64,000 bases of DNA, from contig JAZDNP010000015.1 in NCBI GenBank assembly GCA_043799565.1, positions 12,557 through 76,556 on the forward strand, written 5' to 3'. Source of the stretch: Candidatus Brennerbacteria bacterium (GTDB lineage: Bacteria; Patescibacteriota; Minisyncoccia; UBA6257; GWB1-50-10). The translations under genes and the position numbers were made by a program. This document shows positions 11,423 to 29,689 of the stretch, piece after piece (position 1 is the first letter of the stretch; each line of letters starts with the position of its first letter). The notes under the pieces were generated by a model. It did not search any database. It had not been told where the DNA came from and was given only the letters and a program-made list of their open reading frames with translations.

Positions 11423-11959
11423 ATGGACCAAGTTATTCAAACATTTGAACATCTTGCGCTTGGTGTTTTGGACGCACCATGGGCGCGGTTTCTCTACGGG
11501 GTTCGCTGGCTTTTTATATTCTTGGACATCGCGGTCATCGTTGCGTTCGTCATACTTTTTGTGAAAGCGCTGAACTATCGGCCCAAGTTCACTCGCAGCC
11601 ACAAAAAAGCGGGGGGAAAATCTCCCTTCGACACTAAACTTTTTTCCGAACGGTGGGCAAAACTGGAGAAACATGCGCTTTCCGCGCCTCCCCAGTCATG
11701 CGTGCTCGCTATCATCGAAGCGGACAAGCTTGTGGACGATGCGCTTCGACTCATGGGACTTGAAGGCGAGCATATGGCGGATCGTCTCCAAAAACTTCGC
11801 GTGGAGGACTACCCTTCGCTTGATCGGCTTTGGCGCGCGCACCGCGTAAGGAACGAACTGGTACATACCCCCGATTTCGGCATTGACGAAGGCGACGCCA
11901 AAGATGTGCTCAAGGCCTACCAAAAATTTCTGAAGGAGTTGGGAGCGCTCACTGAATAA
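11423..11959 (+). CDS. Hypothetical small membrane protein
   Basis: 178 aa with one N-terminal TM segment, tightly packed between the flanking genes. Confidence 0.45.
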   Translation: MDQVIQTFEHLALGVLDAPWARFLYGVRWLFIFLDIAVIVAFVILFVKALNYRPKFTRSHKKAGGKSPFDTKLFSERWAKLEKHALSAPPQSCVLAIIEADKLVDDALRLMGLEGEHMADRLQKLRVEDYPSLDRLWRAHRVRNELVHTPDFGIDEGDAKDVLKAYQKFLKELGALTE

Positions 11960-13437: not shown

Positions 13438-13743
13438 ATGGTATTCATCTATACAACCTGTCGTGATGCGGAAGAGGGGAAGAAGTTGAGCGAGCTCGTG
13501 GTATCGGGCCATCTCGCGGCGTGCGTGAACATGTGGCCGATAGAATCTTGTTATGAATGGGAAGGCAAAATGAAATGTGAAAAGGAGTACGCGATGCTCA
13601 TAAAGACCAATGAGGCGAAGGTGCCGGACATTGAAGAATTGGTCATGAAGAACCACTCGTATTCCATCCCATTTATCGGTATGGTGGATGTGCGGAGATT
13701 GAACCGAGAATACAAAGAATGGATGTCCCAAGTAGTCCGCTAG
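13438..13743 (+). CDS. cutA: Divalent-cation tolerance protein CutA
   Basis: 101 aa with the HLAACVN motif and the YEWEG / KT pattern typical of CutA1. Confidence 0.65.
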   Translation: MVFIYTTCRDAEEGKKLSELVVSGHLAACVNMWPIESCYEWEGKMKCEKEYAMLIKTNEAKVPDIEELVMKNHSYSIPFIGMVDVRRLNREYKEWMSQVVR

Positions 13744-13964
13744 TTGCTACACTCATTACCGTGTCCAACGCGACGTTTGCCATGCCGTGGTGGCTTCTTG
13801 CCATCATTGCGGTATTTTTTGTCTGCCTCATTGCGAAGATCATCTCGCTCCTTGATGAGCGGCGCAGATTGAAGTCCGAAATAGCGCTCCTGGAGGGAGA
13901 GGAAGAAAAAGGGGGCGGCTCCGTTCCCGATACCGAAATGGGCGGTTCTGAGGACGGGAGCTAG
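13719..13964 (+). CDS. Hypothetical small membrane protein (the true start may be the internal Met at 13782)
   Basis: 81-aa ORF with one hydrophobic helix (WWLLAIIAVFFVCLIAKII) and an acidic tail. It overlaps the cutA 3' end, so it is weakly supported. Confidence 0.3.
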   Translation: MDVPSSPLVATLITVSNATFAMPWWLLAIIAVFFVCLIAKIISLLDERRRLKSEIALLEGEEEKGGGSVPDTEMGGSEDGS

Positions 13965-14056
13965 ACATTATTCGCGATCTTCCGCGGCTTTGCCCGCGGT
14001 GTTTCGCGTACACTCCAGTACCCTCGCATAGGCGGGGATTTTTATCCCGATTTTTA

Positions 14057-14143
14057 CATATCGCAACGGTAAAATGTTGCATTTCTGCTATCGCGGAAAT
14101 GTAACATTTTTAGCGCGGTTGTTTTAGAAAATTACGTTATAAT
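14057..14143 (+). promoter_or_regulatory. Candidate regulatory region of the paralog array: two direct copies of TATCGC-N-AAATGTnnCATTT separated by 25 bp, plus a perfect TATAAT ending 6 nt before the ATG
   Basis: Each copy contains the palindrome AAATG-N3-CATTT, at 14072-14084 and 14097-14109. Their centres are about -72 and -47 relative to a transcription start predicted at the ATG A (14150). There is no -35 hexamer and no SD. Confidence 0.35.
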
Positions 14144-14149
14144 CATCAA

Positions 14150-15814
14150 ATGACTCCCGAAACCAGAGCGTGCCGGAATTGCCAGAACGCCTTCACTATT
14201 GAACCGGACGATTTCACGTTCTATGAGAAAATGGGTGTCCTACCTCCTGTAAGCTGTCCCGATTGCCGCTTCAAAATAAGAGCGCAGTTCAGGAATGAAA
14301 CGACGCTCTATTCGAGGAAGTGCAACTTGTGTGGACGCTCGATCATTTCGATGTATAATCCCCAGTCGCCTTACACGGTCTACTGCGAGGCGTGTTACGT
14401 GTCCGACAAGTGGGACCCTTTTTCCTACGGAATTAATTATGATTTCAACCGGCCGTTTTTCGAGCAGTTCGGAGAGTTGCTAAAGAAAGTTCCAAAAATG
14501 ACCACGTTTTCAGACCGTTCCAGGCCTAGTACCAACAGCGAATATATAAATTATTCCGGCGGTAATAAGGATTGCTACCTCATATTTAATGGTGGGTCGG
14601 CGGAGAATTCTATGTATTGCCGGGGTCTAAGGTTTTGCAAGGATGTCGTGGACATGTATTTCACACAGAAAACGGAGAGGTGTTATGAGGGAATAAATAT
14701 TATGCAGTCCACTGGGGTCCAGTTCGGTAAAAATATTTCAGGCAGCATAGACTCAATGTTTGTATCGGATGGAAGCGATCTCCAGAATTGCCTTGGCTGC
14801 GTGAATCTTCGGCACAAAAGCAATTACTTTTTCAACAAGCCCGTTTCGAAGGAGGAATTGGAAAAGAAGTTGGGGGAAATAAAGGGTAGTTATTCGAAAA
14901 CAACGAATTTTCAGAAGAAATTTGATGATTTTTCGCTTCAATTTCCAAAGAAAGAAAACAACAATATTAAAGCGGTAGATTGCGTCGGGGATTACATCTT
15001 TAGTTCAAAAAATGCCCGTACCTGTTTTGAGGTAACCGACTGCGAGAATTGCAAGTTTGGTTATTTTATCAAGGGTTCGAAGGATTCCTACGATCTAACC
15101 GGTTTTGGCTATGGCGCCGAGCTACTTCTCGAATGCGTTGGGGTCGGCGTTTCGCAGCGGGTCATCGGCACCTATTGGGCCGAGGAGTCCCATGACATCG
15201 ATTATTGTTATTGTGTCATGTCAAGTGAAAATTGTTTTGGTTGTGATGGTTTAAAGCATGCCCAATTTTCGGTCCTGAACAAGAAGTATTCGAAAGAGGA
15301 ATTCGAAAAGGTACGGCAACACATAATCGAGGAAATGAAAGAAAAAGGTACCTACGGACATTTCATTCCGGTTCAACTGGCGCCGTTCGCTTACAACGAG
15401 ACCATTGCGCAAGACAATCTTCCCCTAACAAAGGAGGAGGCGATTCGACAGGGTTTCCGCTGGGAGGAAAATCCCCAGATGACGAAAGGAAAAGAGACAT
15501 TGAAGCCTGGCGACATCCCAGATCATATTCGAGACATTCCCGATTCTATAACCGAGGAAATCCTCGCCTGCATCTCGTGCGGTCGGAACTATAAGATCAC
15601 TGCCCAAGAATTGGGATTGTATAGACGCGAGACCACCCCCATTCCTCGAAAGTGTTTCTATTGTCGCCACAAGGAAAGGATCGAGAAAAGAGGACCCTTC
15701 GCGCTCTATGCGAGAAAATGTGTGCATTGCGGCAAGGCAATCCAAACCACCTACGGCTCAGAAAGGCCAGAAATTGTTTATTGCGAGCAATGTTACCAAG
15801 CGGAGGTCATATGA
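14150..15814 (+). CDS. Cys-rich multi-zinc-ribbon protein, copy 1 of 10 of a lineage-specific tandem paralog family (function unknown)
   Basis: 554 aa. N-terminal CRNC...CPDC and CNLC...CEAC zinc ribbons, central CLGCVNLRHK and CFGCDGLKHA modules, C-terminal CISC...CFYC...CVHC...YCEQCYQAEVI. Its stop overlaps the next ATG as ATGA. Confidence 0.8.
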   Translation: MTPETRACRNCQNAFTIEPDDFTFYEKMGVLPPVSCPDCRFKIRAQFRNETTLYSRKCNLCGRSIISMYNPQSPYTVYCEACYVSDKWDPFSYGINYDFNRPFFEQFGELLKKVPKMTTFSDRSRPSTNSEYINYSGGNKDCYLIFNGGSAENSMYCRGLRFCKDVVDMYFTQKTERCYEGINIMQSTGVQFGKNISGSIDSMFVSDGSDLQNCLGCVNLRHKSNYFFNKPVSKEELEKKLGEIKGSYSKTTNFQKKFDDFSLQFPKKENNNIKAVDCVGDYIFSSKNARTCFEVTDCENCKFGYFIKGSKDSYDLTGFGYGAELLLECVGVGVSQRVIGTYWAEESHDIDYCYCVMSSENCFGCDGLKHAQFSVLNKKYSKEEFEKVRQHIIEEMKEKGTYGHFIPVQLAPFAYNETIAQDNLPLTKEEAIRQGFRWEENPQMTKGKETLKPGDIPDHIRDIPDSITEEILACISCGRNYKITAQELGLYRRETTPIPRKCFYCRHKERIEKRGPFALYARKCVHCGKAIQTTYGSERPEIVYCEQCYQAEVI

Positions 15815-17538
15815 ACGCGGAAACGAGAAATTGCGCGAATTGCAAGAACTCTTTCACGATAGAGCCGGACGATTTTGTGTTCTATGAACGGATAAGCGTG
15901 CCGCCACCCACGTGGTGCCCAGGGTGTCGGCAGCAACGCCGCTATTCGTGGCGTAATGAACGTGTGCTGTATCGTAGGAACTGTGACTTGTGTGGAAAAA
16001 GCACGGTAACAATCTACTCGCCGAGCAAGCCCTACAAGGTATTTTGCCCGCCATGTTGGTGGTCCGATAAATGGGACGCCCTTGAGTATGGGAGGGAATT
16101 TGATTTTTCTCGCCCGTTTTTCGAGCAGTTTCAAGAGGCGCAGCTCCAAGTGCCCCGCATCGCGCTTCTTACGAAGAATAGTGTCAATTCCGAATACACC
16201 AACCACTCCGGCGATAACAAGAACTGTTACCTGAGCTTCAGCACTTTTGGAGGTGAGAACATTATGTATGGTACGAACGTGTGGGCGCCGTCCAAGGATT
16301 CCATGGACCTTTATCTTGTTCGGACAGAAGGAGGTGCGGAGCGTTGCTATGAATGCATCGATTCGTCCAAAATCTACAGTTTGCAGTTCACCAAGCTGGT
16401 CAAAGACTCAAATGACTGTGCATATTGCTTCGATTGTCGCGGGTGCTCCCACTGTTTCCTCTCCTCAAATCTAAGAAACAAGCAGTACTATTTTGAGAAT
16501 CATCCGCTCTCAAAGGAAGAGTACCAAAAGAAAATGGAGGCAATGAATCTTGGTTCGCGAAAAATTCGCGAAAAACTGTATGAAAAATGGCTTGACCTTA
16601 TCAAGAAACGCTCACTTCACAAATTCGCGATCGTAGAAAAATCCACCGGCGTGACAGGGAATATGGTTTTCAATTCCAAGAATTCAGCCGCGATTTTCGA
16701 TGGCGATAAGACGGAAGATTCCAAATATTCCATTATCTGTCCCGATGTGAAGAATAGTATGGATGTATACCACGTTGGTTTTAGCTGCGAGCTAAATTAC
16801 GAAGCTCATGCCTTGGTTCGTGTCTACGACGTGTTCTTTTCCCACTTGAGTTATGACAACTCCCATTTGCAATATTGCGATTCGTGTCACAACAGCGAAA
16901 ACCTTTTCGGATGCGTGGGTTTGCGATCAAAAAAATATTGCATTTTCAACAAACAATATTCGGAAGAAGAATATAAAACGCTTCGCGCGAAAATCATTGA
17001 GCATATGAAGAAGGGCGGGGAGTACGGCGAATTCTTCCCACCCAAACTTTCTCCTTTCGGATATAACGAAACCCAAGGGATTATTTATATGCCCCTCACC
17101 AAAGAAGAAGCGGTGAAGCGTGGATATAAATGGGAAGATGTGGTAACCGGCACATTCAATAAAGAAACCATTTCTCAAAACGAAGTTCCGGACGATATTA
17201 AGGATGTTGAGAATTCAATTCTTAAGGAGGTTCTGAAGTGTGATGAATGTGAAAAAAACTACAACATTGTGGAGCCGGAGCTGGAATTCTATCGCCGAGA
17301 AGGCATTCCTATCCCGCGTTTTTGCCCGAATTGCCGCTATCAGAAACGGCTTAGCCTCCGCCCCCCACGCAGACTTTGGCACCGGCAATGCATGTGCGAC
17401 TATCGAGCGTGGGAGAATAGCGTAAAACACCCGCATCACACCGAAGGGAGATGTTCTAACGAGTTCAAAACTTCCTATGCCCCCGAAAGGCCCGAAGTGG
17501 TGTATTGCGAGCAGTGCTATAACGCAGAAGTCGTATGA
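15811..17538 (+). CDS. Cys-rich multi-zinc-ribbon protein, copy 2 of 10
   Basis: Begins MNAETRNCANCKNSF at the ATGA overlap; the ORF-track extension back to 15652 lies inside copy 1. It ends ...VYCEQCYNAEVV. Confidence 0.8.
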   Translation: MNAETRNCANCKNSFTIEPDDFVFYERISVPPPTWCPGCRQQRRYSWRNERVLYRRNCDLCGKSTVTIYSPSKPYKVFCPPCWWSDKWDALEYGREFDFSRPFFEQFQEAQLQVPRIALLTKNSVNSEYTNHSGDNKNCYLSFSTFGGENIMYGTNVWAPSKDSMDLYLVRTEGGAERCYECIDSSKIYSLQFTKLVKDSNDCAYCFDCRGCSHCFLSSNLRNKQYYFENHPLSKEEYQKKMEAMNLGSRKIREKLYEKWLDLIKKRSLHKFAIVEKSTGVTGNMVFNSKNSAAIFDGDKTEDSKYSIICPDVKNSMDVYHVGFSCELNYEAHALVRVYDVFFSHLSYDNSHLQYCDSCHNSENLFGCVGLRSKKYCIFNKQYSEEEYKTLRAKIIEHMKKGGEYGEFFPPKLSPFGYNETQGIIYMPLTKEEAVKRGYKWEDVVTGTFNKETISQNEVPDDIKDVENSILKEVLKCDECEKNYNIVEPELEFYRREGIPIPRFCPNCRYQKRLSLRPPRRLWHRQCMCDYRAWENSVKHPHHTEGRCSNEFKTSYAPERPEVVYCEQCYNAEVV

Positions 17539-19241
17539 AACAAGAGACGCGAGATTGTCAGAACTGTAAGCAACCGTTCGTCATCGAAGCGGAGGATTTC
17601 TCGTTCTACGAAAAAATGACGGTGCCGGCGCCCACATGGTGCCCCAAGTGCCGGCTCCAGCGGCGCCTCGCATTTTTCAATCTCTTCAATTTGTGGAAGC
17701 GGAAGTGCGACCTTTGCGGAAATGAGATGATTGCCATGTATCCACCGGAGGCATCTTACAAAGTGTACTGTCCCCATTGCTGGTGGGGAGACGGATGGGA
17801 CCCCTACAACTACGGTCGCGAGTACGATTTCTCGCGGCCATTCTTCGCGCAGTTCAGTGAGCTCTGGCACGAAGTTCCCCTCCTTGGGCTCTCGCTCAGC
17901 TTGAATTCCATTGATACGTCGCCCTACAACAACCACGCGGGAGGATTGAAAAATTGTTACCTCCTTTTCCACGCAGATTTTTGCGAGGATTCGGCATACG
18001 GAGCGTACCTCAACCGGTGCAAGTCCGTTTTTGATTCTTCGCTTACCATTTCTTCCGAGCACTGCTACGATATGCTCCATTCTTACCGGAACAACCGATG
18101 TGTCGGTGGGCGGAGCCAAGTCACCGAATCTATTGACTGCGCGTTCTTGAAGGACTCGATGAATTGCCAGCACTGCTTTGCGTCCGCGAACATGCGGAAC
18201 AAGAAATACTACATATTCAATCAGCCATATTCTAAAGAAGGGTACGAGGAGGAAATGAAGAAGTGGGACCTTGGGAGCTATCGCACATACCAGGAAGCGA
18301 AGCGGCGCGCCGAAGAGCATTTGGTAACATTGCCTCCGAAGCCGACAATGGATGAGTTCACAACGAACTGCACGGGGAGCCATGTGTTCCAAGCAAAAAA
18401 CTGCAAGGATTGTTTCGAAGTGGTGGGTGCCGAGGACTGTCGCTACGTCCATATGGTGCAGGACCCCCCAGTCAAGGACTGCTACGACGTTACAAGCTGG
18501 GGCAACAACACGCAGCGTTGCTATGAAGGCTGTGTGGTGGGGGAGTTCGTAAGCGACCTGAAATTTTGCCAGGAAAGCGGCATTAATCTCTACTTTGCGG
18601 AGTACTGCAAGCTTTCGACGGGAGGCTCGCGTCACTTCGGGTGTGTGTCGGTGAAGAAAGGCGAATACGCCATTTTGAACAAGCATTACTCCAAAGAAGA
18701 ATACAGGGCACTCACCGAGAAGATACGGAAGCATATGGATGAGATGCCGTATGTGGATAAAAGAGGAGGAGTCTATAAATACGGTGAATTTTTCCCGGTG
18801 GAGTTGTCACCGTTCGCATACAACAAAACGATTGCAGATATATTCTTCCCGCTCTCAAAACGGGAGGCAGAGGAGCGGGGATATGTATATATGGAGCCGG
18901 AGGTGCGGACCTACACCGTAACGAAACAAGCGAAGAACCTTCCGGATCATATCAAAGATGCGCCGAACGATATCGTAAAAGAGACCATCGCGTGCGAGAA
19001 ATGCGGGAAAGGATACAAGGTGACCGAGATGGAGCTTGCGTTCCTGCGGAACATGAACCTGCCGCTCCCGCGCCGGTGCCCCTTCTGCCGCATCCAGGAA
19101 AAATTCGCGCAGTGGGTGAAGAATCTCCGCGTCATTGACCGGACGTGCGGCAAATGCGGCGTTACATTCCAAACGAATTATCCCAAGGAGGAGGCGCCGC
19201 ACATTCTCTGCAAACGGTGTTATCTTAAAGAAATCGTATGA
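17535..19241 (+). CDS. Cys-rich multi-zinc-ribbon protein, copy 3 of 10
   Basis: 568 aa, MKQETRDCQNCKQPF...; ATGA overlaps at both ends; C-terminal zinc-ribbon variant CEKCGKGYKV...CPFCRIQEK...CGKCG. Confidence 0.8.
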   Translation: MKQETRDCQNCKQPFVIEAEDFSFYEKMTVPAPTWCPKCRLQRRLAFFNLFNLWKRKCDLCGNEMIAMYPPEASYKVYCPHCWWGDGWDPYNYGREYDFSRPFFAQFSELWHEVPLLGLSLSLNSIDTSPYNNHAGGLKNCYLLFHADFCEDSAYGAYLNRCKSVFDSSLTISSEHCYDMLHSYRNNRCVGGRSQVTESIDCAFLKDSMNCQHCFASANMRNKKYYIFNQPYSKEGYEEEMKKWDLGSYRTYQEAKRRAEEHLVTLPPKPTMDEFTTNCTGSHVFQAKNCKDCFEVVGAEDCRYVHMVQDPPVKDCYDVTSWGNNTQRCYEGCVVGEFVSDLKFCQESGINLYFAEYCKLSTGGSRHFGCVSVKKGEYAILNKHYSKEEYRALTEKIRKHMDEMPYVDKRGGVYKYGEFFPVELSPFAYNKTIADIFFPLSKREAEERGYVYMEPEVRTYTVTKQAKNLPDHIKDAPNDIVKETIACEKCGKGYKVTEMELAFLRNMNLPLPRRCPFCRIQEKFAQWVKNLRVIDRTCGKCGVTFQTNYPKEEAPHILCKRCYLKEIV

Positions 19242-20893
19242 CGAGCGAAACTAAAATCTGCCAGAATTGTCATGGTTCCTTCACCATCGAACCGGACGAT
19301 TTTGGATTTTATCAAAGGTTGGACCTCCCCGCGCCTTTCCGTTGCCCGAAATGTGAGTGGCAATATCTCCTCGCGTTTTGGATTTTCGGTCGCTTCCGCA
19401 TCTCCGTATCAGCGTTGAGCGGAAAGCGTATTATTACCGCGCTTCCGGAAAGCGTACCCTTCCCAATTTACGAGCGCGATGAATTCGTTTCTGATGCGTG
19501 GGATCCGTTGTCGTATGGACGCGACCACGACCCTCGTCGACCTTTTCTCACACGGCTTCTTGAACTTCAAGCAAGTGTTCCTCATCCGCACCAAACCGGT
19601 ATCAAGAACGTGAATTGTGACTGGACCGATGACGTGTGGGAATCTCGGGACGCCTATCTTACACGTTCCGGACTGGGCATGGAATCCGTGAGCTACTGCT
19701 ATCGGGCATTCTACTGCAAGAATTCCATTGATCTTACTTATTGTTTCAATACCGAGCACTCTTACGACTGCCTTCATTGCTTCAATGGTTATGGCCTAAA
19801 GTACTCATTTAATTGCCGTGCCTGCATTAATAGCGCGTTTCTGTACGACTGTCGCAATTGCACGGATTGTTTCATGTGCTGGAATTTGCGGAACAAACAG
19901 TATCACATTCTCAATCAGCCATACTCGAAAGAAGATTACCTCGTCAAAATCAAGGAATTTGATGTTCGTTCGTATGCGGTTGTAGAGCAGTTGAGGAAAG
20001 AATTTTGGGAGCATATCCGCAACGATGCGACTCATCGTGCGGACTATAACTTTCTCAATTCCCGCTCAACCGGAAATTTTTTGACAGAGGACAAAAACTG
20101 TCACAAGTGCTACTTCCTCGATAAATCGGAAAATTGCCGTTATTGTTTCCGCGGGCTGGGGAGCAAGGACAATATCTATATTATGGGTTCTGTAGGAGAA
20201 AAATGTGGGCGTGGTTCCCTCGATCAATGGGGTTACGAGAATGTGTGCAATCTTTACACTTCATATTGTCGCTACAGCGCCTATTTGGATAATTGCGAGG
20301 AATGCGAACATTGTTTCGGCTGTGTCGGTCTTCGGAAGAGAAGTTATTGCGTTTTGAACAAGCAATATTCGAAAGAGCAATACGAGGAACTTGTTTTGCA
20401 TATTAAGTCGCAAATGAAGGCAACGAACGAATGGGGATTGTTTTTCCCGCTTGCCGGAGCTTACAGTGGGTACAATTATTCACTTGCCCATCTCATGTTC
20501 CCCAAGTTTCGCGAGGAGGCACTTGCCTTTGGCGCAAAGTGGGACGAACTACCGCACGACGGACATGTCGGAGTGCGAAGCGAAGATTTGCCAGACAGAA
20601 TCGACGGAGTTCAGGACGAACTTACCAAGCAGCGGATTATCTGCGCCGCAACGAAGCTGAGCTACAATATTGCGCCCCACGAGCTGCAATTCTATCGAGA
20701 ACACGGAGTTCCGCTGCCGCGCGAGCATTTCGACTGGCGGACCTTTAAACGCTTCAAACCGCTGGCGCTTATGGTAGATCTTCAAAGAGAGGAGTGTGTT
20801 TATTGTGGTAAGGAGATTGAACATTATTATTCTCCGGAGCTCGGCTTTCGGAAGGTCGCTTGCGTGGAATGCTACCAACAAAATTTCTCATGA
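19238..20893 (+). CDS. Cys-rich multi-zinc-ribbon protein, copy 4 of 10 (divergent copy)
   Basis: 551 aa. The first zinc ribbon is retained (CQNC...CPKCEW), the second ribbon has lost its cysteines, and the C-terminal module is replaced, ending CVYCGKEIEHYY...CVECYQQNFS. The ORF is intact. Confidence 0.75.
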   Translation: MTSETKICQNCHGSFTIEPDDFGFYQRLDLPAPFRCPKCEWQYLLAFWIFGRFRISVSALSGKRIITALPESVPFPIYERDEFVSDAWDPLSYGRDHDPRRPFLTRLLELQASVPHPHQTGIKNVNCDWTDDVWESRDAYLTRSGLGMESVSYCYRAFYCKNSIDLTYCFNTEHSYDCLHCFNGYGLKYSFNCRACINSAFLYDCRNCTDCFMCWNLRNKQYHILNQPYSKEDYLVKIKEFDVRSYAVVEQLRKEFWEHIRNDATHRADYNFLNSRSTGNFLTEDKNCHKCYFLDKSENCRYCFRGLGSKDNIYIMGSVGEKCGRGSLDQWGYENVCNLYTSYCRYSAYLDNCEECEHCFGCVGLRKRSYCVLNKQYSKEQYEELVLHIKSQMKATNEWGLFFPLAGAYSGYNYSLAHLMFPKFREEALAFGAKWDELPHDGHVGVRSEDLPDRIDGVQDELTKQRIICAATKLSYNIAPHELQFYREHGVPLPREHFDWRTFKRFKPLALMVDLQREECVYCGKEIEHYYSPELGFRKVACVECYQQNFS

Positions 20894-22629
20894 CAGAAAC
20901 AAGGCAGTGCCAGAATTGTCGAAACCCATTTGTCATCGAGCCGGATGATTTTGCGTTCTACGAGCGCATCAAGGTGCCGCCGCCGACGTGGTGTCCGGAG
21001 TGCCGAATGATACGGCGGATGGCGTTTCGGAGCGAGCGCCCCCTTTTTAAAGATTTCTGCGACCTTTGCAGGAAAGAGATAATTTCCATGTACGGACCGG
21101 AAAAGCCGTATAAAGTGTACTGCAACGCATGCTGGTTTTCGGACAAATGGGACGGGACAGAATATGGACGCGAGTATGATTTTTCGCGCCCGTTTTTCGC
21201 GCAATTCGCCGGTCTCCTGGCGGAAGTGCCAAGGATGGCGCTGGAGGCCTACCAGAACGAAAATTCCCCCTATTCAAATTTCACATGGATGTCCAAAAAT
21301 ATTTATCTTTCGCCCTCCTCGATGTTTTCCGAGAATATTCTGTTCACTTTCGGAGCTTGGTACAGCACGGATCTTGTGGATTGTTTCCGCACCCAAAACT
21401 CTTCGCTTGGCTATTATCTGGTTGAGTCCAACAAGTGTTCGTCGTCGCGCTATTTAACAGATTCGCTCGAGTGTCTTGATTCCGCATTCCTCTTTGATTG
21501 CAGGAATTGTAGGAATTGCTTTATGAGTAGCGGACTTCGAAATAAAACGTTTTATTTCCGCAATACCCAGCTTACGAGAGAGGAATATGAGAAGAAATTT
21601 GCGGAAATCGACATGGGAAGTTTTACGTCCACGCAGAAGCTTATCGCTGAATTCAACGAGCTTATGCTCCACACGATGCGGAAGTATGCCATATTGAGCA
21701 AAGTTGAAAATGTAACAGGCGATATGATTTTCAATTCAAAGAACGTGCACCGGGGTTTTAATGGTAAAGATAGCGAAAATTTGAAGTTTGTGGCGCACTT
21801 TGTGGAAGCAAAGGACTCCATGGACGCGCATGGCGTGGGACCGTCTGGGGAACTCATCTACGAAGTGGTCAATGGTGGTTATAAAGACCAGTCGGTCTTT
21901 TTCGTCACCCATACCTATGAAGGGATGAATTTGGTGTGGTATTGCGATTACTGCCGATTGTCGGGGAAAAATCTTTTCGGGTGCGCAGGTCTAAAACACA
22001 AGCAATACTGCATCCTGAACAAGCAATACACAAAGGAGGAATACGAGGAGCTGGTGCCCAAGATCATCAAGCACATGAACGACATGCCGTATGTGGATGA
22101 GAAGGGGAGAGTATATCGGTATGGAGAGTTTTTCCCGCCAGAGTTGAGCCCCTCGGCATACAACGAAACCATCGCCCAAGAGTACTTCCCCCTCACAAAA
22201 GAACAGGCTCTCTCGCGAGGGTATCGCTGGAGAGACCCCGACACCAAGGAGTACAAGGTGACCAAGCCCCCCCAGGGCCTCCCCGATCACATCAAGGATG
22301 TGGACGACTCAATCCTTCAAGAGACCATTGGTTGCGCCCATGAAGGTTTCTGCACCCACCAGTGCACCACCGCCTTCAAGGTCATCCCCGAAGAGCTCGC
22401 CTTCTACCGCAGAATGAACCTCCCCCTCCCCAGGCTCTGTCCCAACTGCAGACACTATGAACGTCTCTCGGAGCGGAACCCTATGAAGCTTTGGCACCGC
22501 CAATGCATGTGTGATAAGCCAAACCATCCCCACCACGGTCGTTGCCCCAACGAATTTGAGACGAGTTATGCGCCCGAAAGGCCGGAGACGATATATTGTG
22601 AACAGTGTTATAACGCCGAAGTCGCATGA
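20890..22629 (+). CDS. Cys-rich multi-zinc-ribbon protein, copy 5 of 10
   Basis: Begins MTETRQCQNCRNPF at the ATGA overlap. Its C-terminus ...LWHRQCMCDKPNHPHHGRCPNEFETSYAPERPETIYCEQCYNAEVA matches the copy 2 subtype. Confidence 0.8.
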   Translation: MTETRQCQNCRNPFVIEPDDFAFYERIKVPPPTWCPECRMIRRMAFRSERPLFKDFCDLCRKEIISMYGPEKPYKVYCNACWFSDKWDGTEYGREYDFSRPFFAQFAGLLAEVPRMALEAYQNENSPYSNFTWMSKNIYLSPSSMFSENILFTFGAWYSTDLVDCFRTQNSSLGYYLVESNKCSSSRYLTDSLECLDSAFLFDCRNCRNCFMSSGLRNKTFYFRNTQLTREEYEKKFAEIDMGSFTSTQKLIAEFNELMLHTMRKYAILSKVENVTGDMIFNSKNVHRGFNGKDSENLKFVAHFVEAKDSMDAHGVGPSGELIYEVVNGGYKDQSVFFVTHTYEGMNLVWYCDYCRLSGKNLFGCAGLKHKQYCILNKQYTKEEYEELVPKIIKHMNDMPYVDEKGRVYRYGEFFPPELSPSAYNETIAQEYFPLTKEQALSRGYRWRDPDTKEYKVTKPPQGLPDHIKDVDDSILQETIGCAHEGFCTHQCTTAFKVIPEELAFYRRMNLPLPRLCPNCRHYERLSERNPMKLWHRQCMCDKPNHPHHGRCPNEFETSYAPERPETIYCEQCYNAEVA

Positions 22630-24392
22630 ACTCTGAAACCAAAACCTGCCAAAATTGCCACAGCCCGTTCATCATTGAACCGGATGATTTCGCGTTCTAC
22701 GAGCGCATCAAAGTGCCGCCACCGACATTTTGCGCGGAATGCCGCGAAAAGCGGCGTATCGCATCCAGGAACGAACGCTCGCTCTACAGAAGGAAGTGCG
22801 ATATGTGCGGGAAGGAAGTGGTATCGCGAATTTCGCCCGACAAAACTTATCCGATGTATTGCAATAATTGTTGGTGGTCGGATAAGTGGGATGTGCTTTC
22901 CTACGGAAGGGATTTTGACGCCACAAAACCATTTTTCGCGCAGTATAAGGAGTTGCTCTATTTGGTTCCTCACGTTGCGATGTACAACAGCGCAGTGGTG
23001 AACAGCGATTGGGTGAACCAGGAAACCAACGACAAAAACTGCTATCTCAATGTCGGTGGTCACTACAACGAGAATTCCGCATACAACACCTATGAGGTTT
23101 ACGGAAAGGATTCTTTGGACTGTCACTGGCTTCTCAATAGCGAGTTCTGCTACGCCGCCATCAATTGTCACCGGTGTTATAAAGCTTTTTATTCCCAAGA
23201 TTGTTTTGACTGCCAGGACACATATTTTTCATACGATTGCAGGAATTGCACGAACATTCTTGGGTGCGCGGGACTTCGCAACAAGCAGAACTATATATTT
23301 AACAAACCGGTTTCCAAGGAGGAATTCGCGAAATTTTTAGAGGAGAACCCTCTCTCGTCCGCAAAGAACGTTGCCCGATTGGCGGCAGAAGCTCGGAAGA
23401 TAGGGAGTGGCATACCGCGGCGATTCAGCGCGGTTTTCAAGTCGGTGAATTGCAGTGGAAATAATCTCGTGGAGTCTAAGAACGCACACTACGTTTTTGA
23501 TGGGGGAACCATTGAGAATTCCAAATACCTTTTTATCACCGGATGGGTGAAAGACAGCTACGATATGACCTCGAGCGGCGGTTCGGAGTTGAGCTATGAA
23601 TGTTCGAGTGGGGGCGGAGGGTATAACGTGAAGTTTACCGCATATAGCATGTCGCCGAACCCGCTCGAAAAGATGCATTCCCGCGATTTGGAATACTGCT
23701 ACGCCACGGGAGATTGCGATAGTTGTTTTGGGTGCGTGGGTCTCCGGAGTAAAAAATATTGCATTTTGAACAAGCAATATTCCGAAGCGGACTATCAAAA
23801 GAAAGTTGCGGAAATACGGCAGCAGATGATGGCGGTGCCCTATGCGGACGGGATGGGAAGAGAATATCGCTATGGCGAGTTTTTCCCGTCAGAGCTCTCG
23901 CTTTTCGGGTATAACGAAAGCGCGGCGATGGACTACTATCCACTCACGCGCGACGAGGCCCTTGCGCAAGGTTATGTATGGAGCGATTACGAATCGGAAA
24001 CGAGCGTGGCATTCTCGGGCTATGAAATCCCCGACGACATCAAAGACGTGAAGGACGATGTGCTGGAAAAGGTTTTGGAGTGCGAGGTTTCGGGGAAACC
24101 GTACAAGATAATTCCGATGGAGCTCGCATTCTACCGACGCATGGGTTTGCCGCTTCCGCGCCGTGCACCGCTCCAGCGGCACAAGGACCGCACCGCAAAA
24201 CTTTTGCCGCGCAAGCTTTTTGACCGTGCGTGCGAGTGTGGAGGAAAAGCGTCCAACAAGGGCGGTTTTGCAAATACCACTCCGCATTTTCACGGTGACG
24301 GACACTGCCCGAACATAGTACAGACACCCTATGCGCCGGATCGACCGGAAATTGTATATTGCGAGCAATGCTATCAAACTGAAATTATATGA
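22626..24392 (+). CDS. Cys-rich multi-zinc-ribbon protein, copy 6 of 10
   Basis: 588 aa, MNSETKTCQNCHSPF...; two central CxxCxxC-F/L-GCxGLRxK modules; C-terminal CEVSGKPYKI subtype. Confidence 0.8.
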   Translation: MNSETKTCQNCHSPFIIEPDDFAFYERIKVPPPTFCAECREKRRIASRNERSLYRRKCDMCGKEVVSRISPDKTYPMYCNNCWWSDKWDVLSYGRDFDATKPFFAQYKELLYLVPHVAMYNSAVVNSDWVNQETNDKNCYLNVGGHYNENSAYNTYEVYGKDSLDCHWLLNSEFCYAAINCHRCYKAFYSQDCFDCQDTYFSYDCRNCTNILGCAGLRNKQNYIFNKPVSKEEFAKFLEENPLSSAKNVARLAAEARKIGSGIPRRFSAVFKSVNCSGNNLVESKNAHYVFDGGTIENSKYLFITGWVKDSYDMTSSGGSELSYECSSGGGGYNVKFTAYSMSPNPLEKMHSRDLEYCYATGDCDSCFGCVGLRSKKYCILNKQYSEADYQKKVAEIRQQMMAVPYADGMGREYRYGEFFPSELSLFGYNESAAMDYYPLTRDEALAQGYVWSDYESETSVAFSGYEIPDDIKDVKDDVLEKVLECEVSGKPYKIIPMELAFYRRMGLPLPRRAPLQRHKDRTAKLLPRKLFDRACECGGKASNKGGFANTTPHFHGDGHCPNIVQTPYAPDRPEIVYCEQCYQTEII

Positions 24393-26155
24393 CCCCCGAA
24401 ACGCGGCAGTGTCAGAACTGCAAGCAGAATTTCGTCATTGAACCGGACGATTTTGCGTTCTACGAGAAAATGAAGGTTCCTGCGCCGACTTTCTGCCCGG
24501 ATTGCCGCCGACAAAGACGTTTCGCGTGGCGTAATGAACGTACGCTCTATAAACGCGCGTGCGACATGTGCCGCAAAGATGTGATCGCGCTTTACCCGAA
24601 GGACTCGAAATTTCCGGTCTACTGCAACGCGTGTTGGTTTTCGGACAAATGGGATCCGCTCACATACGGAGCCGCATACGACCCCTCAAAGCCGTTTTTC
24701 CGGCAATTCAAGGAATTAAGTGAAAAAGTTCCGCGGCTTGCCATTTGGGTACAACAGTCCACAGATTCGGAATACACCAACCAATCATATTCGAATAAAA
24801 ACGTATATCTTTCCTTCGCGCTTCGAGATTCGGAAGATGTGGCGTATTGTTGCCGCGCGGTGGAGCTCAAGCAGTGCATTGACGATACCTACACTCATCA
24901 TTCGGAGCTTCTATATCAATGTGTTGATACCGACAAATCGTACCGGAGCCAGTTTCTCGAAGAAGCCGATGGATGCGTGGAAAGCGCATTTCTTTCCAAC
25001 GCGCGAAACTGCCAGAACTGTTTCGGGGGAGCGAATCTTCGGTCCGCGTCCAACGTATTTTTTGGCGAGGCGCTCAGCAAAGAGGCGTACGAAGAAAAAT
25101 TGGCGGGCATAGACAAAGGAAGCAGGAAAGTGCTTGAAGAGCTGAAAAAGAAGCTTGCCGAGCTGAAAAAGCGGAGCATTTTCCGTTTTGCCACACTCAC
25201 GAATGCCACCAACGTGACCGGAAACCATCTTTCCAATGCGAAAAATTGCCATTTTGTTTTTGACGGGTTCGAGCTTGAAAATGCCCGCTATTCCTCATGG
25301 GTCTTTACGAGCAAGGAAATATCCGACTGCTACGGCATGGGCGGGAGCGAGTTCATCTACGAGGGGATTGGCGTGGAAGAGGTGAATAACATCAAATTCG
25401 CGACGGTGACCGACAGTTCACACCATGTGGAATATACCGACATGTGCTCCGCTTCATCCAATCTTTTCGGGTGTGTGGGCCTGAGAAACAAAGAGTATTA
25501 CATTCTGAATAAACCATACGCCAAAGAAGAATACGAGAAGAAAGTGGCGGAAATTATCGCCCACATGAATGCGTCACCCTACACAGACAAGAGGGGGAGG
25601 GTATACAGGTACGGGGAATTTTTCCCCGCGGAGCTTTCTCCCTTCGCATACAACGAAACGGTGGCGCAGGAAAACTATCCGTTGAAAAAAGAAGATGCGG
25701 AAGCGCAGGGGTACTTCTGGAGAGAGCCCGAGGCGCACCAATATGCAACAACGCTTACTGCGGAAAACGTGCCGGACAACATAAAGGAAGTTTCGGATTC
25801 AATAACCAACGAGACGATCCAGTGCGCTCATGAAGGCAAGTGTAATGACCAGTGTTCCACCGCGTTCCGCATCACCCCGCTTGAATTACGGCTCCATCGA
25901 GCGCTGAACATGCCATTGCCCCAACTTTGCCCCAACTGCCGGCATTATGAGCGGCTTGCCCAGCGGAATCCCTTGAAGCTTTGGCGCCGGAAATGCCAAT
26001 GTGCGGGCGGAAAGTCCGAGGATGGCGTTTATACGAATACCGCCGTGCATTCGCACAAAGATGGGCGTTGCATAAATGAATTTGAAACAAGCTACGCCCC
26101 CGAAAGGCCGGAGACGATATATTGCGAACAGTGTTATAACGCCGAAGTGATATGA
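24389..26155 (+). CDS. Cys-rich multi-zinc-ribbon protein, copy 7 of 10
   Basis: 588 aa, MTPETRQCQNCKQNF...; C-terminal GCAHEGKCNDQC...LPQLCPNCRHYERLAQRNPLKLWRRKCQCAGG subtype. Confidence 0.8.
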   Translation: MTPETRQCQNCKQNFVIEPDDFAFYEKMKVPAPTFCPDCRRQRRFAWRNERTLYKRACDMCRKDVIALYPKDSKFPVYCNACWFSDKWDPLTYGAAYDPSKPFFRQFKELSEKVPRLAIWVQQSTDSEYTNQSYSNKNVYLSFALRDSEDVAYCCRAVELKQCIDDTYTHHSELLYQCVDTDKSYRSQFLEEADGCVESAFLSNARNCQNCFGGANLRSASNVFFGEALSKEAYEEKLAGIDKGSRKVLEELKKKLAELKKRSIFRFATLTNATNVTGNHLSNAKNCHFVFDGFELENARYSSWVFTSKEISDCYGMGGSEFIYEGIGVEEVNNIKFATVTDSSHHVEYTDMCSASSNLFGCVGLRNKEYYILNKPYAKEEYEKKVAEIIAHMNASPYTDKRGRVYRYGEFFPAELSPFAYNETVAQENYPLKKEDAEAQGYFWREPEAHQYATTLTAENVPDNIKEVSDSITNETIQCAHEGKCNDQCSTAFRITPLELRLHRALNMPLPQLCPNCRHYERLAQRNPLKLWRRKCQCAGGKSEDGVYTNTAVHSHKDGRCINEFETSYAPERPETIYCEQCYNAEVI

Positions 26156-27948
26156 CGAACGAGACAAAGACTTGCCAAAATTGTAAACAGAACTTCGTCA
26201 TTGAACCGGACGACTTTGCGTTCTACGAGAAAATGAAGGTTCCTGCGCCGACGTTCTGTCCCGATTGCCGTCGGCAGAGACGGATGGCCTTTCGGAACGA
26301 GCGAATATTCTACAAACGATCTTGCAATGTGCCTGGGCACACCGAGGAAATAGTATCCACATTTTCTCCAGACAAGTCCGTTACGGTTTATGACGACCGA
26401 TATTGGTGGAGCGATGCATGGAACCCTACGGACTATGGGCGACCGTATGATTTTTCGCGCCCGTTCTTCGAACAGTACAAAGAACTTTTGCGCCGAGTAC
26501 CGCTCATCAATCTTTCCATCACTAATATGGTAAATTGCAGTTATTGCAACGTGTCAGAAGGCGACAAAGATTCATTTTTCATCTCCGGCTCCGAGAGGAA
26601 TGAGAACGTGTCGTACGCGAACCGGGTAGTGTTCAGTAAGGATTCACAGGATCTCTATATCGCGAACGCGTGCGAATTGAGCTACGAGCTTGTAAGTTGC
26701 AACAAGTGTTACCGCGTCTTTTTCAGTAGAAACTGCAGTGATTGCTCGGAGTCGGCATTTTTATGGAACTGCACCAACTGTAGCCACTGTTTTGGATGCA
26801 CAAATCTTCGAAACAAGTCATATCACTTTTTCAATACGCCGCTCTCCAAGGAAGAATTCGAGAAAAAAATGCGCGAGGTGGGTCTTGGAAATTTTGCGGT
26901 GGTTGAGCAATATAGAAAGAAGCTTCGTGGACTCGCCGAGAAATCGCTCCACCGATTCGCGAACATCTTAAAAAGTGTGGAAGTAACCGGTGATAATATC
27001 GCCTTCTCTAAAAACATAAAACAGAGTTTTGACATGGTCGGGAATCCCGCTGCGGAAGACGGCAAGTATCTCACTTGGGGCGGTATGGGAGTGAAAGACG
27101 TATGGGATGCCGGGCCAGGGGTAGGTGTTTCGCTTGAGCGGGCATATGAGGTAACTGATGTCGGCATCCAATCAAACAGTTGTTTCTTTGCGAGTGTGGT
27201 ATACGGTTCCTATGACGTGTACTACAGCATCAACTGTCACGGGTCGCGCCACCTCTTCGGGTGTTACGGTCTTCGCAGCAAGGAGTACTGTATTTTGAAC
27301 AAAGAATATTCAAAAGAAGAGTACGAAGCCCTCGTGCCGAAGATCATTTCTCATATGAACGAGGTTCCCTACGCGGACAAGAAAGAGAGGATGTATCGGT
27401 ACGGCGAGTTTTTCCCGATGGAAATTTCTCCTTACGCCTATAACGAGGTTATTGCACAGGAATACTACCCACTCACAAAAGAACAAGCGCTCGCGAAGGG
27501 GTACGAGTGGAAAGACCAAGACGCGAAGGGGCACCAGATTACCATAGGGTCCGCGGACCTTCCGGACGATATTAAGGATGTTTCGGACAATATCCTGAAA
27601 GAGACGATAGGGTGTGCAGATGGAGGAATATGTAATCATCAGTGCGCGCTTGCGTTCAAAATAATGCCGCAGGAACTCACGTTCTATCAGAAAATGGGAT
27701 TGTCGCTTCCCCGTCACTGCTATAACTGCCGCCACTATGAGCGTTTGGCGCAGAGAAATCCCCTGAAACTGTGGCACCGGAAGTGCCAGTGCGCAGGGGG
27801 AAAAGCAGAGAACGGCACTTACGCAAATACCGTTTCCCATACGCACCACGGCACCGGCCACTGCACAAACGAATTTGAAACGACCTATGCTCCCGACCGC
27901 CCGGAAGTCGTGTATTGCGAGCAATGTTATCAGGCCGAAGTGGTATGA
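26152..27948 (+). CDS. Cys-rich multi-zinc-ribbon protein, copy 8 of 10 (CN-x-PGH subtype)
   Basis: 598 aa. The second zinc ribbon is replaced by CNVPGHTEE...YDDRYWWSDAWNP. The C-terminus has GCADGGICNHQC...CYNCRHYERLAQRNPLKLWHRKCQCAGG. Confidence 0.8.
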   Translation: MTNETKTCQNCKQNFVIEPDDFAFYEKMKVPAPTFCPDCRRQRRMAFRNERIFYKRSCNVPGHTEEIVSTFSPDKSVTVYDDRYWWSDAWNPTDYGRPYDFSRPFFEQYKELLRRVPLINLSITNMVNCSYCNVSEGDKDSFFISGSERNENVSYANRVVFSKDSQDLYIANACELSYELVSCNKCYRVFFSRNCSDCSESAFLWNCTNCSHCFGCTNLRNKSYHFFNTPLSKEEFEKKMREVGLGNFAVVEQYRKKLRGLAEKSLHRFANILKSVEVTGDNIAFSKNIKQSFDMVGNPAAEDGKYLTWGGMGVKDVWDAGPGVGVSLERAYEVTDVGIQSNSCFFASVVYGSYDVYYSINCHGSRHLFGCYGLRSKEYCILNKEYSKEEYEALVPKIISHMNEVPYADKKERMYRYGEFFPMEISPYAYNEVIAQEYYPLTKEQALAKGYEWKDQDAKGHQITIGSADLPDDIKDVSDNILKETIGCADGGICNHQCALAFKIMPQELTFYQKMGLSLPRHCYNCRHYERLAQRNPLKLWHRKCQCAGGKAENGTYANTVSHTHHGTGHCTNEFETTYAPDRPEVVYCEQCYQAEVV

Positions 27949-29681
27949 CCTCCAAAACCCCCACATTTAATGTGGCACTAAATGCGATTTTTGATACGCT
28001 CGTCCCGCACGAACGAACGTGTGCGTGGTGCGGAGAGAAATTCCAGGTGGAGAAGGAGGACATTGATTTCTACCGGATGCTCCGTGTACCTCCACCAACG
28101 TGGTGCCCGGAGTGCCGTGAAAAGAGGCGATTCGGACACTTGATGAGGATGATGAAGTTTTTCAAACGACCGTGTAGCGCGCCAGGTCACAGTGAAAACG
28201 TTATTTCCGTCATTCCACCCGCGGCGCCACATAAAACTTTTGATTTTTCGTATTGGCATTCGGACGCGTGGGATGCGGCAACGTTTGGATGCGCATATGA
28301 CGTTGCGAAACCATTCGGGGAGCAATTCCGTGCTCTATTCCTTGATGTGCCACATGTTCCATTGGAACGAGATCCTGCGGCGGTAAATTCGGACTACGCG
28401 GTGGGTGGAACTGCATCAAAAAACGTTTACTTTTCGGGGATGGCGCTTGATTGCGAGAACATTTTTTATTCCTACGATAGCCGTTACAGCCACGACCTCG
28501 TGGATTGCAATGAAGTAAGCAATTCCGGGAACTGCTATGGCGCGATTTGTTCCGCGTACAGCGAGCGATGCCGTTTTATTATCGGGTGTTCCCATTGTCT
28601 AGACTGCGATTTCCTCTATGAATGCAAGCATTGTTCGCATTGTTTTATGTCGGCGAACTTGAGAAACAAGTCCTACATGTTCCGCAATGAGCAACTCTCA
28701 AAAGAGGAATACGAGGAGCGAATGCGCGAAATTAGGACAGGCGAGCGGATCCAAATAGAGGCACTTCATAAAGAGTTTGAGGACGTTATGGCGCGTTCGT
28801 TGAGGCGCGCGGTTCAGACGGTGCACACCACAGATTCCGTGGGGGACAGTTTGAGCGAATGCAACCGATGTTTCTTTGCCTTCAGATCGGAAAAAGTCGA
28901 AAACGCGCGGTATGTAGCGAACGTTTTTTCCGCGCATGACCTTATGGACACATTGAACAACATACAAACAGAGCAGTCGTACGAAAACATTGTTATCGGA
29001 TGGGGGAGCAAGAATTATTTTTCAATGTACCTCCGCCACTCGTCATCCATGGAGTATTGTTCCGAGTGCCTCCGTTGTGCCGATTGTTTCGGATGCGTTG
29101 GGCTCAAAGATAAGAAATTTCACATTTTTAACGTGCCGCATCCTGAAGATGAATATTGGCGGCGCGTGGATGAGCTGAAGACCGCAATGCTTGCGCGCGG
29201 CGAATATGGAGAATTTTTCCCGCTCACGCTCGGTCTTTTTCCGTACCAAACGTCAAATGCGCAGAAAGAATTTCCTATCACTGAAAAGGAGGCGCAACAG
29301 CGGGAAATCCCCTGGTACGCCGAATCCTCGTCCGATATTTCCACAAACCTACGGGTCCGCAAAGCGCCCGCCGAGGTCCCCAAAGACATTAAGGATGTTA
29401 CCGATGGGATTCTCAATGATGCCATTGCATGCGAGGTAAGCGGCAAGCCATTTCGCATCACAAAAGACGAGCTCGCGTTCTACCGTAAAATGGAACTTCC
29501 GCTCCCCACAAAACATCCTTGGGAACGAATGCGGGAGCGGGGACGATGGGAACATGGATTTTGGCTCTCGCCTTTCATGTGTCCAAAATGCAAGGAACAG
29601 TCCTGGTCGGTGTATAACAAGGAAGAGCAGCGGCGCTTCGAGATCTATTGCGAATCGTGTTATCTCAAGGAGGTGATATAA
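27945..29681 (+). CDS. Cys-rich multi-zinc-ribbon protein, copy 9 of 10 (CS-x-PGH subtype, divergent N-terminus)
   Basis: Begins MTSKTPTFNV at the ATGA overlap. CAWCGEKF...CPECREKRR zinc ribbon, then CSAPGHSEN. C-terminal CEVSGKPFRI subtype with a degenerate terminal ribbon. Confidence 0.75.
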   Translation: MTSKTPTFNVALNAIFDTLVPHERTCAWCGEKFQVEKEDIDFYRMLRVPPPTWCPECREKRRFGHLMRMMKFFKRPCSAPGHSENVISVIPPAAPHKTFDFSYWHSDAWDAATFGCAYDVAKPFGEQFRALFLDVPHVPLERDPAAVNSDYAVGGTASKNVYFSGMALDCENIFYSYDSRYSHDLVDCNEVSNSGNCYGAICSAYSERCRFIIGCSHCLDCDFLYECKHCSHCFMSANLRNKSYMFRNEQLSKEEYEERMREIRTGERIQIEALHKEFEDVMARSLRRAVQTVHTTDSVGDSLSECNRCFFAFRSEKVENARYVANVFSAHDLMDTLNNIQTEQSYENIVIGWGSKNYFSMYLRHSSSMEYCSECLRCADCFGCVGLKDKKFHIFNVPHPEDEYWRRVDELKTAMLARGEYGEFFPLTLGLFPYQTSNAQKEFPITEKEAQQREIPWYAESSSDISTNLRVRKAPAEVPKDIKDVTDGILNDAIACEVSGKPFRITKDELAFYRKMELPLPTKHPWERMRERGRWEHGFWLSPFMCPKCKEQSWSVYNKEEQRRFEIYCESCYLKEVI

Positions 29682-29689
29682 TTGTGCCG

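Follow-up and report, generated by a model that had tools for sequence, protein, structure and literature searches.

Gene organization of the locus

The stretch of DNA analysed here, referred to as the window, comprises 64,000 nucleotides of a Candidatus Brennerbacteria genome (contig JAZDNP010000015.1, positions 12,557 to 76,556 of the forward strand; assembly GCA_043799565.1) and carries ten paralogous genes for cysteine-rich proteins, nine of which lie in tandem on the same strand between positions 14150 and 29681, while the tenth stands alone at 40633-42420. A first-pass annotation made from the sequence alone had proposed the nine-gene array with its tenth copy, a series of conserved motif boxes and a bacterium of the candidate phyla radiation (CPR) as the host. 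The host assignment is supported, the array and the additional copy are borne out by the open reading frames (ORFs), by an alignment of the copies and by hidden Markov models (HMMs) of the protein modules, which detected exactly ten copies in the window and no further match, and every one of the quoted motif boxes was found in the alignment.

When the ATG starts indicated by the alignment are used for copies 2, 5 and 9, each of the eight junctions within the array is a 4-nt ATGA overlap. The ten proteins are 551-598 aa long and share pairwise identities of 29-54%, and the inter-copy DNA repeats found at gene-length spacing are only 60-80% identical; from these values, which lie far beyond chance, the copies are products of old duplications and not an assembly artefact. 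Each protein contains 28-34 cysteines (4.8-6.0% of its residues), fewer than the approximately 40 (about 7%) first estimated. The G+C content of the array is 48.9%, compared with 54.1% in the rest of the window, and the third-position GC content of the array genes is 53-67%, compared with 59-71% in ten other genes.

Domain architecture and predicted structure

All members follow one layout, in which an N-terminal double zinc module (finger A, basic helix, finger B) is followed by two central modules (M1 and M2), an aromatic/acidic linker and a C-terminal double zinc module (finger A', basic helix, finger B'). Profile-profile comparisons establish homology between the N- and C-terminal modules (hhalign probability 99.5%, E 1e-22) and between M1 and M2 (probability 99.9%, E 3e-34). 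The finger A pattern CxxC...CPxCR, followed by an Arg-rich helix, occurs in each end module, and the arginines of the helices after fingers A and A' are conserved (R40, R43, R44, R48, R51 and R56; R518, R522 and R534). Both central modules close with an FGC-GLRNK cap and a SKEEY helix; the motif C-x2-C-x2-C-F-G-C-x-G-L-R-x-K, previously described as studding the whole centre, is present only twice per protein, at the end of each central module.

The 16 terminal cysteines, arranged as four Cys4 sites, are 81-100% conserved in an alignment of 125 sequences, with both CxxC pairs of finger A fully conserved (100%), and the four sites are predicted to bind structural zinc. The earlier description of the terminal modules as zinc fingers is supported both by this conservation and by matches to two Pfam families, PF13451 (zf_Tbcl; 16.4-18.6 bits, E 0.002-0.009, residues 5-44/45 in copies 3, 7 and 8) and PF23477 (zf_Tbcl_2, also TIGR04272; 10-16.4 bits in the window copies, with finger B aligned over residues 51-84 in several of them), although the former lie below the 24-bit gathering threshold and the latter below the cut-offs of 27 (Pfam) and 36 (TIGR). 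Two homologues of the family (P0052 and P0070) pass PF23477 in precomputed annotation. The spacing of finger B is exactly CxxC-x17-CxxC (C58-x2-C61-x17-C79-x2-C82) in copies 1, 2, 3, 5, 6 and 7, and a domain type with this spacing has been found to bind zinc by inductively coupled plasma mass spectrometry in small proteins of Methanosarcina mazei (PMC12704099). It is missing from copies 4, 8, 9 and 10. In the last three, finger B is replaced by a C-x-x-x-G-H-x-E variant, in which C-[NS]-x-[PS]-G-H-[TSA]-E stands in place of CxxC and the distal CxxC is gone (YDDRYW, FDFSYW and YDQDHW); this variant, found in approximately 19% of the aligned family members, may be another kind of metal site or a fold that holds no zinc. 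In copy 4, finger B and most of finger A' are missing, and copies 6 and 9 have likewise lost finger A'.

The family thus resembles zf_Tbcl and zf_Tbcl_2 in the matches of fingers A and B and in the exact CxxC-x17-CxxC spacing. Those domains, to neither of which a function is assigned, are otherwise seen as solitary domains of small proteins or as tails; in the present family, two fingers of different kinds are combined into a fixed module, which stands at both ends of a 550-600 aa chain around two solenoids. The zinc-module profile also gave a marginal match to the LIM domains of CRP1 (E ~1e-3), in which the cysteine spacing of the second finger is similar; however, the LIM ligand pattern C-x2-C-x16-23-H-x2-C-x2-C-x2-C-x16-21-C-x2-C/H/D does not occur in the family, Pfam returns no LIM match and, unlike in LIM domains, each finger has a Cys4 site of its own, and a basic helix of approximately 18 residues connects the two. 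The marginal PDB profile matches of the full-length protein and of the zinc module to LIM and C2H2 domains were put down to similar cysteine spacing.

In the same alignment, the central cysteines are mostly 16-83% conserved, with two at 91-98%, and alternate with S, V, A, T or I; C205, C208 and C211, conserved at 70-83%, are missing in copies 1 and 7. They follow a strict every-third-residue register in both M1 and M2. The autocorrelation of cysteine frequency in M1 reveals periods of 15 and 3 (0.63-0.65, with 0.65 at lags 15 and 30), while the best lags in M2 are 9, 18 and 27 (0.33-0.47). Being variable and replaced by small residues within this register, the central cysteines look like small-residue ladders that pack the core of a narrow beta-solenoid and not like the ligands of metal clusters.

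The AlphaFold2 model of copy 7 has a predicted template modelling score (pTM) of 0.85 and a mean predicted local distance difference test (pLDDT) of 83.9; the end modules exceed a pLDDT of 90, and the N-terminal zinc module modelled alone reaches 85.5. Narrow beta-solenoids are the sole structural matches of the full-length model: the Lolium perenne ice-binding protein (3ULT, 14-15-residue coils), CcmM (7D6C, gamma-carbonic-anhydrase-like), the left-handed beta-helix of GlmU, bactofilin (2N3D), curli CsgA (8C50), Ag43 and UspA1. M1 shares with these proteins a coil of approximately 15 residues, and small-residue ladders at every third position are found in both modules. The family differs from known narrow solenoids in that it is cytoplasmic and cysteine-laddered, has its solenoid duplicated in tandem in a single chain and carries zinc modules on either side. 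No match to hexapeptide, pentapeptide or bactofilin HMMs was found in the copies, and a Foldseek run against the PDB returned nothing. The net charge of the twenty solenoids lies between -1 and -9, with the exceptions of M1 of copy 1 (0) and M2 of copy 4 (+2). Neither a signal peptide nor a transmembrane (TM) segment was found in the family proteins, which are predicted to be soluble.

These features bear on the proposal, made in the first-pass annotation, of a multi-metal (Fe-S or Zn) scaffold, which could serve in storage or in redox chemistry. The cysteine content would agree with it, and the 'divalent ion tolerance' gene CutA1 adjoins the array here and elsewhere. On the other hand, the central cysteines are not conserved as ligand sets, no conserved set of cluster-ligand cysteines was detected, the copies match neither Fer4 or other ferredoxin-type families nor radical-SAM families in Pfam, and only the four Cys4 sites are conserved; the Fe-S scaffold was rejected on these grounds.

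Distribution and evolution of the family

More than 5,000 database proteins match the family of copy 7 and are labelled hypothetical, uncharacterized or 'zinc-binding domain-containing', and when 1.84 billion representatives were searched exhaustively with a profile, 2,333 clusters (50% identity) were retrieved at E <= 1e-30. Since the best 150 clusters align end to end, nearly all of them at 545-600 aa, the architecture is fixed. Lineage restriction and variation in copy number had both been raised in the first-pass annotation as matters to be checked, and both were found. The source taxa are Nomura-, Staskawicz-, Jorgensen-, Lipton-, Giovannoni-, Sungii- and Niyogi-bacteria, Paceibacterota and Minisyncoccia, and the family is confined to Patescibacteria (CPR) of the Parcubacteria/Paceibacteria type; from 1 to at least 9 copies are found within 10 kb, and genomes differ in which paralogue types they carry. 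Three family-bearing contigs with a GC content of 30-36% are labelled Burkholderiales (L061), Gammaproteobacteria (L060) and Woesearchaeota (L071). The first of them is a 268-kb contig (JAMPXW010000002.1) with CPR gene content, on which the ATPase described below is also found in a CPR-like order of genes; the second and third measure 2-3 kb. Occurrence outside CPR was dismissed, the labels being probably binning or annotation errors.

Arrays persist in relatives and are not reduced there to the single copy that the first-pass annotation had contemplated. Copies 1, 2, 3, 4 and 8 have one-to-one orthologues in arrays of distant lineages, at 54-64% identity and 150-425 bits above other paralogues, and an orthologue of copy 7 with 75% identity is found in a different context, beside three more family copies. 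The mean identity between paralogues is 27% in the solenoids versus 44-49% in the zinc modules, box and linker, whereas in close orthologues of copy 7 the solenoids are 72-88% identical and the rest 57-79%. Each paralogue type therefore combines a conserved solenoid of its own with a common frame. Solenoids that are specific to a paralogue yet conserved among its orthologues amount to subfunctionalization and not to hypervariation or recent amplification, and the paralogue types are ancient. Recent neutral amplification and gene conversion are ruled out by the protein and DNA identities between the copies and by the one-to-one orthologues elsewhere.

A repertoire for surface or immunity variation, another suggestion of the first-pass annotation, would be in keeping with tandem paralogues, and beta-solenoids are common among surface adhesins. 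It is contradicted by the lack of signal peptides and TM segments, by a comparison with the PADLOC-DB 2.0 defence models that gave only chance-level Cas12f matches (E ~0.06), by a scan of IMG/VR viral contigs that revealed no copies, by the conservation of the variable regions among orthologues, which are hence not hypervariable, and by duplications that are ancient and show no recent gene conversion. Whether as such a repertoire or as the multi-metal scaffold considered above, an explanation of this kind is regarded as very improbable.

Nothing in Pfam, NCBIfam, PADLOC or the PDB, be it a curated family, a defence system or a solved structure, matched the whole protein, and scans of the copies against Pfam, NCBIfam, PADLOC and PHROGs gave only the sub-threshold zinc-finger matches; the earlier statement that the family cannot be placed in any characterized one is consequently upheld. 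No description of the family was found in the literature by topic, domain name or member accession. For these reasons, and as far as these sequence and PDB comparisons can tell, the protein family and the candidate system described below are rated as new, with fingers that belong to known finger families and a centre with a generic solenoid fold.

Association with an orphan coupling-protein cluster

The gene order of the window up to the array is SecDF, a sigma-70-region-4/HARE-HTH protein, the conserved cluster X-t-A, CutA1 and a possible small TM ORF. The product of A is a homologue of type IV coupling proteins (T4CPs) and passes the corresponding HMMs PF10412 (39.4 bits, cut-off 20.5), PF12696 (27.8 bits, cut-off 22) and PF02534 (26 bits, cut-off 20.1); its matches to the TraD/VirD4-like models of NCBIfam are sub-threshold, falling short of the equivalog cut-offs, and TrwB is its only sequence match in the PDB. 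Of 39 A-type proteins, 36 have the Walker A motif. The identity of A across lineages (75-90%) is far above the conservation of the array family. For X, no match was found in Pfam, NCBIfam or the PDB, and its interpretation as a degenerate ATPase paralogue was discarded because no similarity could be detected. The C-terminal helical region of t contains the motif RVRNELVH (R-x4-H), which appears as RNDLVH in the homologue from locus L035 and recalls HEPN/DUF4145-type motifs, with no HMM support.

In other genomes, too, CutA is found between A and the family genes. The spacer between CutA1 and the array (13744-14149) is unusually long (406 nt) and contains terminator-like hairpins at 14022-14049; a scan for promoters and terminators gave no signal above shuffled expectation. 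The DNA of the small ORF in this spacer is conserved only in the closest relative (L084), and no homologue was found in other loci. A TATAAT box ends 6 nt 5' of the ATG of copy 1 and, at so short a distance, the array transcript may be leaderless.

The association between the family and the ATPase was evaluated in both directions, using 80 loci anchored on the family and, in a reverse test, 80 metagenome loci fetched with the ATPase as the query. In the family-anchored set the ATPase cluster, in which A-type and X-type genes are counted together, is the commonest non-family neighbour, with 51 genes in 30 of the 80 loci, 29 of them directly adjoining a family gene; the genes are usually ordered X-t-A-F, where F is a family gene, and family genes lie within the ATPase cluster in L016, L032 and L074. 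Nearly all ATPase-anchored loci are ordered X-t-A-(CutA)-F(n), and 56 of the 80 contain the family, a fraction that amounts to 29 of 35 (83%) among loci with at least 4 kb of downstream sequence and to 21 of 24 (88%) among those with at least 8 kb. The distance from the end of A to the first family gene is usually 14-950 nt.

A second ATPase paralogue, which the window itself does not contain, has a C-terminal PF23477 finger that scores 43-56 bits against the 27-bit cut-off, and a family gene begins 1-83 nt behind ten of 13 ATPases of this type. The paralogue of L065, the one sequence read through, has a long Pro-rich low-complexity tail after the finger.

Neither virB4 nor the channel genes VirB3, VirB6 and VirB8 are found among the annotated ORFs of the window, and no relaxase gene lies nearby. 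In a 2025 survey, 5,713 VirD4-type T4CP homologues were counted in Patescibacteria, 148 of them near virB4, and the authors consider that the T4CP homologues of this lineage may be exapted to other functions (PMC12102498). In the searchable literature, no report links the present family to an orphan T4CP cluster.

Possible role of the array

It is tentatively suggested that the array could supply a set of adaptors or cargoes to a T4CP-driven machine that is independent of a type IV secretion system (T4SS), since the family proteins would combine a common zinc docking handle with solenoids that differ. The zinc modules and the linker would form the handle by which all family proteins dock to the X-t-A motor, each solenoid would supply a different specificity, and the T4CP-like translocation machine would run without a VirB4-type secretion channel. 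A wider proposal, which we regard as doubtful, is that X-t-A and the family constitute a hitherto unrecognized translocation system common to Paceibacteria, in which X and t would anchor a hexameric VirD4-like motor that needs no VirB4 channel and moves different substrates across the membrane with the help of the adaptor or cargo repertoire, docked through its zinc fingers.

A T4CP served by several adaptors is exemplified by the DotL-DotM-DotN-IcmSW-LvgA complex of Legionella (PMC7251119, PMC5802825). Like the genes of that complex, the array locus places a VirD4/TrwB-like ATPase beside soluble proteins with common and differing parts, and in loci of this type one ATPase paralogue has a domain in common with the family proteins; unlike the Legionella complex, it has no VirB4, channel or relaxase genes nearby, and the analogy is a functional and inferred one. 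IcmS, IcmW, LvgA and DotN were not among the results of the general Pfam and PDB searches, which included no comparison aimed at them. FtsK-like secretion ATPases are likewise encoded beside arrays of paralogous substrates in ESX/type VII systems.

Several points weigh against the adaptor or cargo repertoire. Six X-t-A loci with at least 4 kb of downstream sequence have no family gene, and a substitute gene family sought behind the ATPase in family-less loci was not found, only housekeeping genes being present there. Many family genes, copy 10 and those of L081 among them, have no ATPase near them. The case for a functional link is built on gene neighbourhood and on one small domain in common, and since the ATPase-anchored loci are relatives with 75-90% identity, the synteny may be partly inherited and not selected. 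The evidence does not distinguish an adaptor from a cargo or import from export, and the conserved solenoid surfaces speak against host-directed effectors in an arms race. Finally, M1 and M2 were modelled with modest confidence (pLDDT 54-78).

The ATGA overlaps at the eight junctions of the array suggest translational coupling and equimolar synthesis, as would be expected if the paralogues were subunits of a single cytoplasmic hetero-oligomer or filament, either a solenoid scaffold or a cytoskeletal polymer, connected head to tail through their zinc modules, the proximity of the ATPase being incidental or a matter of co-regulation. The homology between the N- and C-terminal modules would suit such self-association, and paralogue-specific surfaces are kept in orthologues, as fixed positions in a complex require. 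The hetero-oligomeric assembly put forward in the first-pass annotation is possible in these respects; where it falls short is in the copy number of 1 to at least 9 and the varying set of types, which fit an obligate fixed stoichiometry poorly. Moreover, in the single-chain prediction (pTM 0.85) other domains lie over the solenoid at both of its ends, and the shared PF23477 finger and the tight junctions between ATPase and family genes are left unexplained, so that this explanation is considered unlikely.

Also to be weighed is a role in nucleic-acid binding, in which the four zinc fingers would hold DNA or RNA through their basic helices, with the solenoid as a rigid spacer, and the proteins would act on DNA handled by the VirD4-like translocase, for instance during its uptake or export. 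TrwB-type T4CPs are DNA-dependent motors, and TrwB is the only relative of A in the PDB by sequence; the Arg-rich helix behind fingers A and A' is conserved, and DprA and ComEC-like genes lie downstream of X-t-A in some loci. Nevertheless, the solenoids are net acidic, no DNA-binding relative was found, and generic binding would not explain ten paralogues with different conserved solenoids. A nucleic-acid-binding function is accordingly held to be quite improbable.

A functional link to the ATPase would define a new machine in a major uncultivated lineage as well as a new architecture, in which paired double zinc fingers clamp two cysteine-laddered solenoids. Without such a link, this would still be a large, structurally unusual and lineage-defining family that deserves a Pfam entry and a solved structure. 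Despite the very small genomes of Patescibacteria, approximately 17.5 kb are spent here on ten copies of one uncharacterized protein, and the fixed position of the family behind a highly conserved VirD4-like ATPase bears on the role of the approximately 5,700 T4CP homologues of this lineage, almost none of which lie near a T4SS. Patescibacteria of this kind are host-dependent and nucleotide-auxotrophic. If the translocation-system proposal were true, part of the import or export needs of such host-dependent cells could be met, and thousands of 'orphan' T4CP genes would gain a function.

Table 1. Positions of the family genes, of the modules of copy 7 and of associated genes (window coordinates unless a locus is named)
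Feature	Position	Strand	Description
Copy 1	14150..15814	+	554 aa; opens the array; one-to-one orthologues in L079, L034, L074 (54-58% identity)
Copy 2	15811..17538	+	575 aa from ATG 15811; orthologue in L062 (63% identity)
Copy 3	17535..19241	+	568 aa; orthologues in L022, L066 (61-62% identity)
Copy 4	19238..20893	+	551 aa; divergent; Cys ligands lost in finger B and most of A'; orthologues in L028, L009 (60-64%)
Copy 5	20890..22629	+	579 aa from ATG 20890
Copy 6	22626..24392	+	588 aa; ligands of C-terminal finger A' lost
Copy 7	24389..26155	+	588 aa; reference for modelling; identical to MFH0806743.1 (V1885_03410) of a Candidatus Brennerbacteria metagenome-assembled genome
Copy 8	26152..27948	+	598 aa; C-x-x-x-G-H-x-E variant of finger B; orthologues in L025, L077 (56-60%)
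Copy 9	27945..29681	+	578 aa from ATG 27945; most divergent; 18-aa N-terminal extension; finger B variant; A' lost
Copy 10	40633..42420	+	595 aa; solitary, between genes for an RseP-like M50 protease and a class II aminoacyl-tRNA synthetase; 49% identical to copy 7
Copy 7, N-terminal double zinc module	24398..24637	+	Residues 4-83; finger A C8, C11, C36, C39; basic helix; finger B C58, C61, C79, C82
Copy 7, module M1	24701..25108	+	Residues 105-240; helix, predicted solenoid (~15-residue coils), cap with 'NCxNCFG..NLR', then SKEEY helix
Copy 7, module M2	25148..25573	+	Residues 254-395; homologous to M1; cap 'FGCVGLRNKxYCILNKxYxKEEY'
Copy 7, aromatic/acidic linker	25574..25804	+	Residues 396-472; YGEFFPxELSPFAYNETxAQE...PDxIKDV; conserved family-wide; pLDDT 87-98
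Copy 7, C-terminal double zinc module	25811..26137	+	Residues 475-583; A' C479, C489, C514, C517; B' C536, C561, C579, C582; Cys/His-rich insert
X	10019..11416	+	465-aa membrane protein, N-terminal TM helices; first in the conserved X-t-A cluster
t	11423..11959	+	178-aa single-pass TM protein; no known domain
A	11961..13403	+	480-aa soluble VirD4/TrwB/TraD-like ATPase (T4CP homologue); Walker A motif
CutA1 homologue	13438..13743	+	101 aa; PF03091 (E 1e-29); between A and the array
Possible single-TM ORF	13719..13964	+	81 aa; in the CutA-to-array spacer; status uncertain
Finger-bearing ATPase paralogues	L065:12172-14586; L028:7895-9898; L041:2130-4394; L085:12619-14469		~600-800 aa; PF23477

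Other genes of the window

Rfam and tRNA scans of the window returned nothing. The product of the gene that follows the array (29648-31057, + strand) is a TM protein of 469 aa in which a GlxA beta-barrel-like domain is weakly matched; its homologues occur in six of the 80 family-anchored loci and do not adjoin the arrays. The region of copy 10 is flanked by two MreB paralogues (37153-38160 and 43711-44742, + strand), MreC and a PBP2-type transpeptidase, and the gene for the RseP-like M50/PDZ protease ends 15 nt 5' of this copy. Between dnaK and dnaJ lies an ORF of 357 aa (56566-57639, + strand) that has no Pfam match; in related loci, a VirD4-like ATPase is often found directly before dnaJ. 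At the start of the window (54-2768, + strand), a 904-aa protein is encoded for which a Lamin Tail Domain is the only Pfam match.

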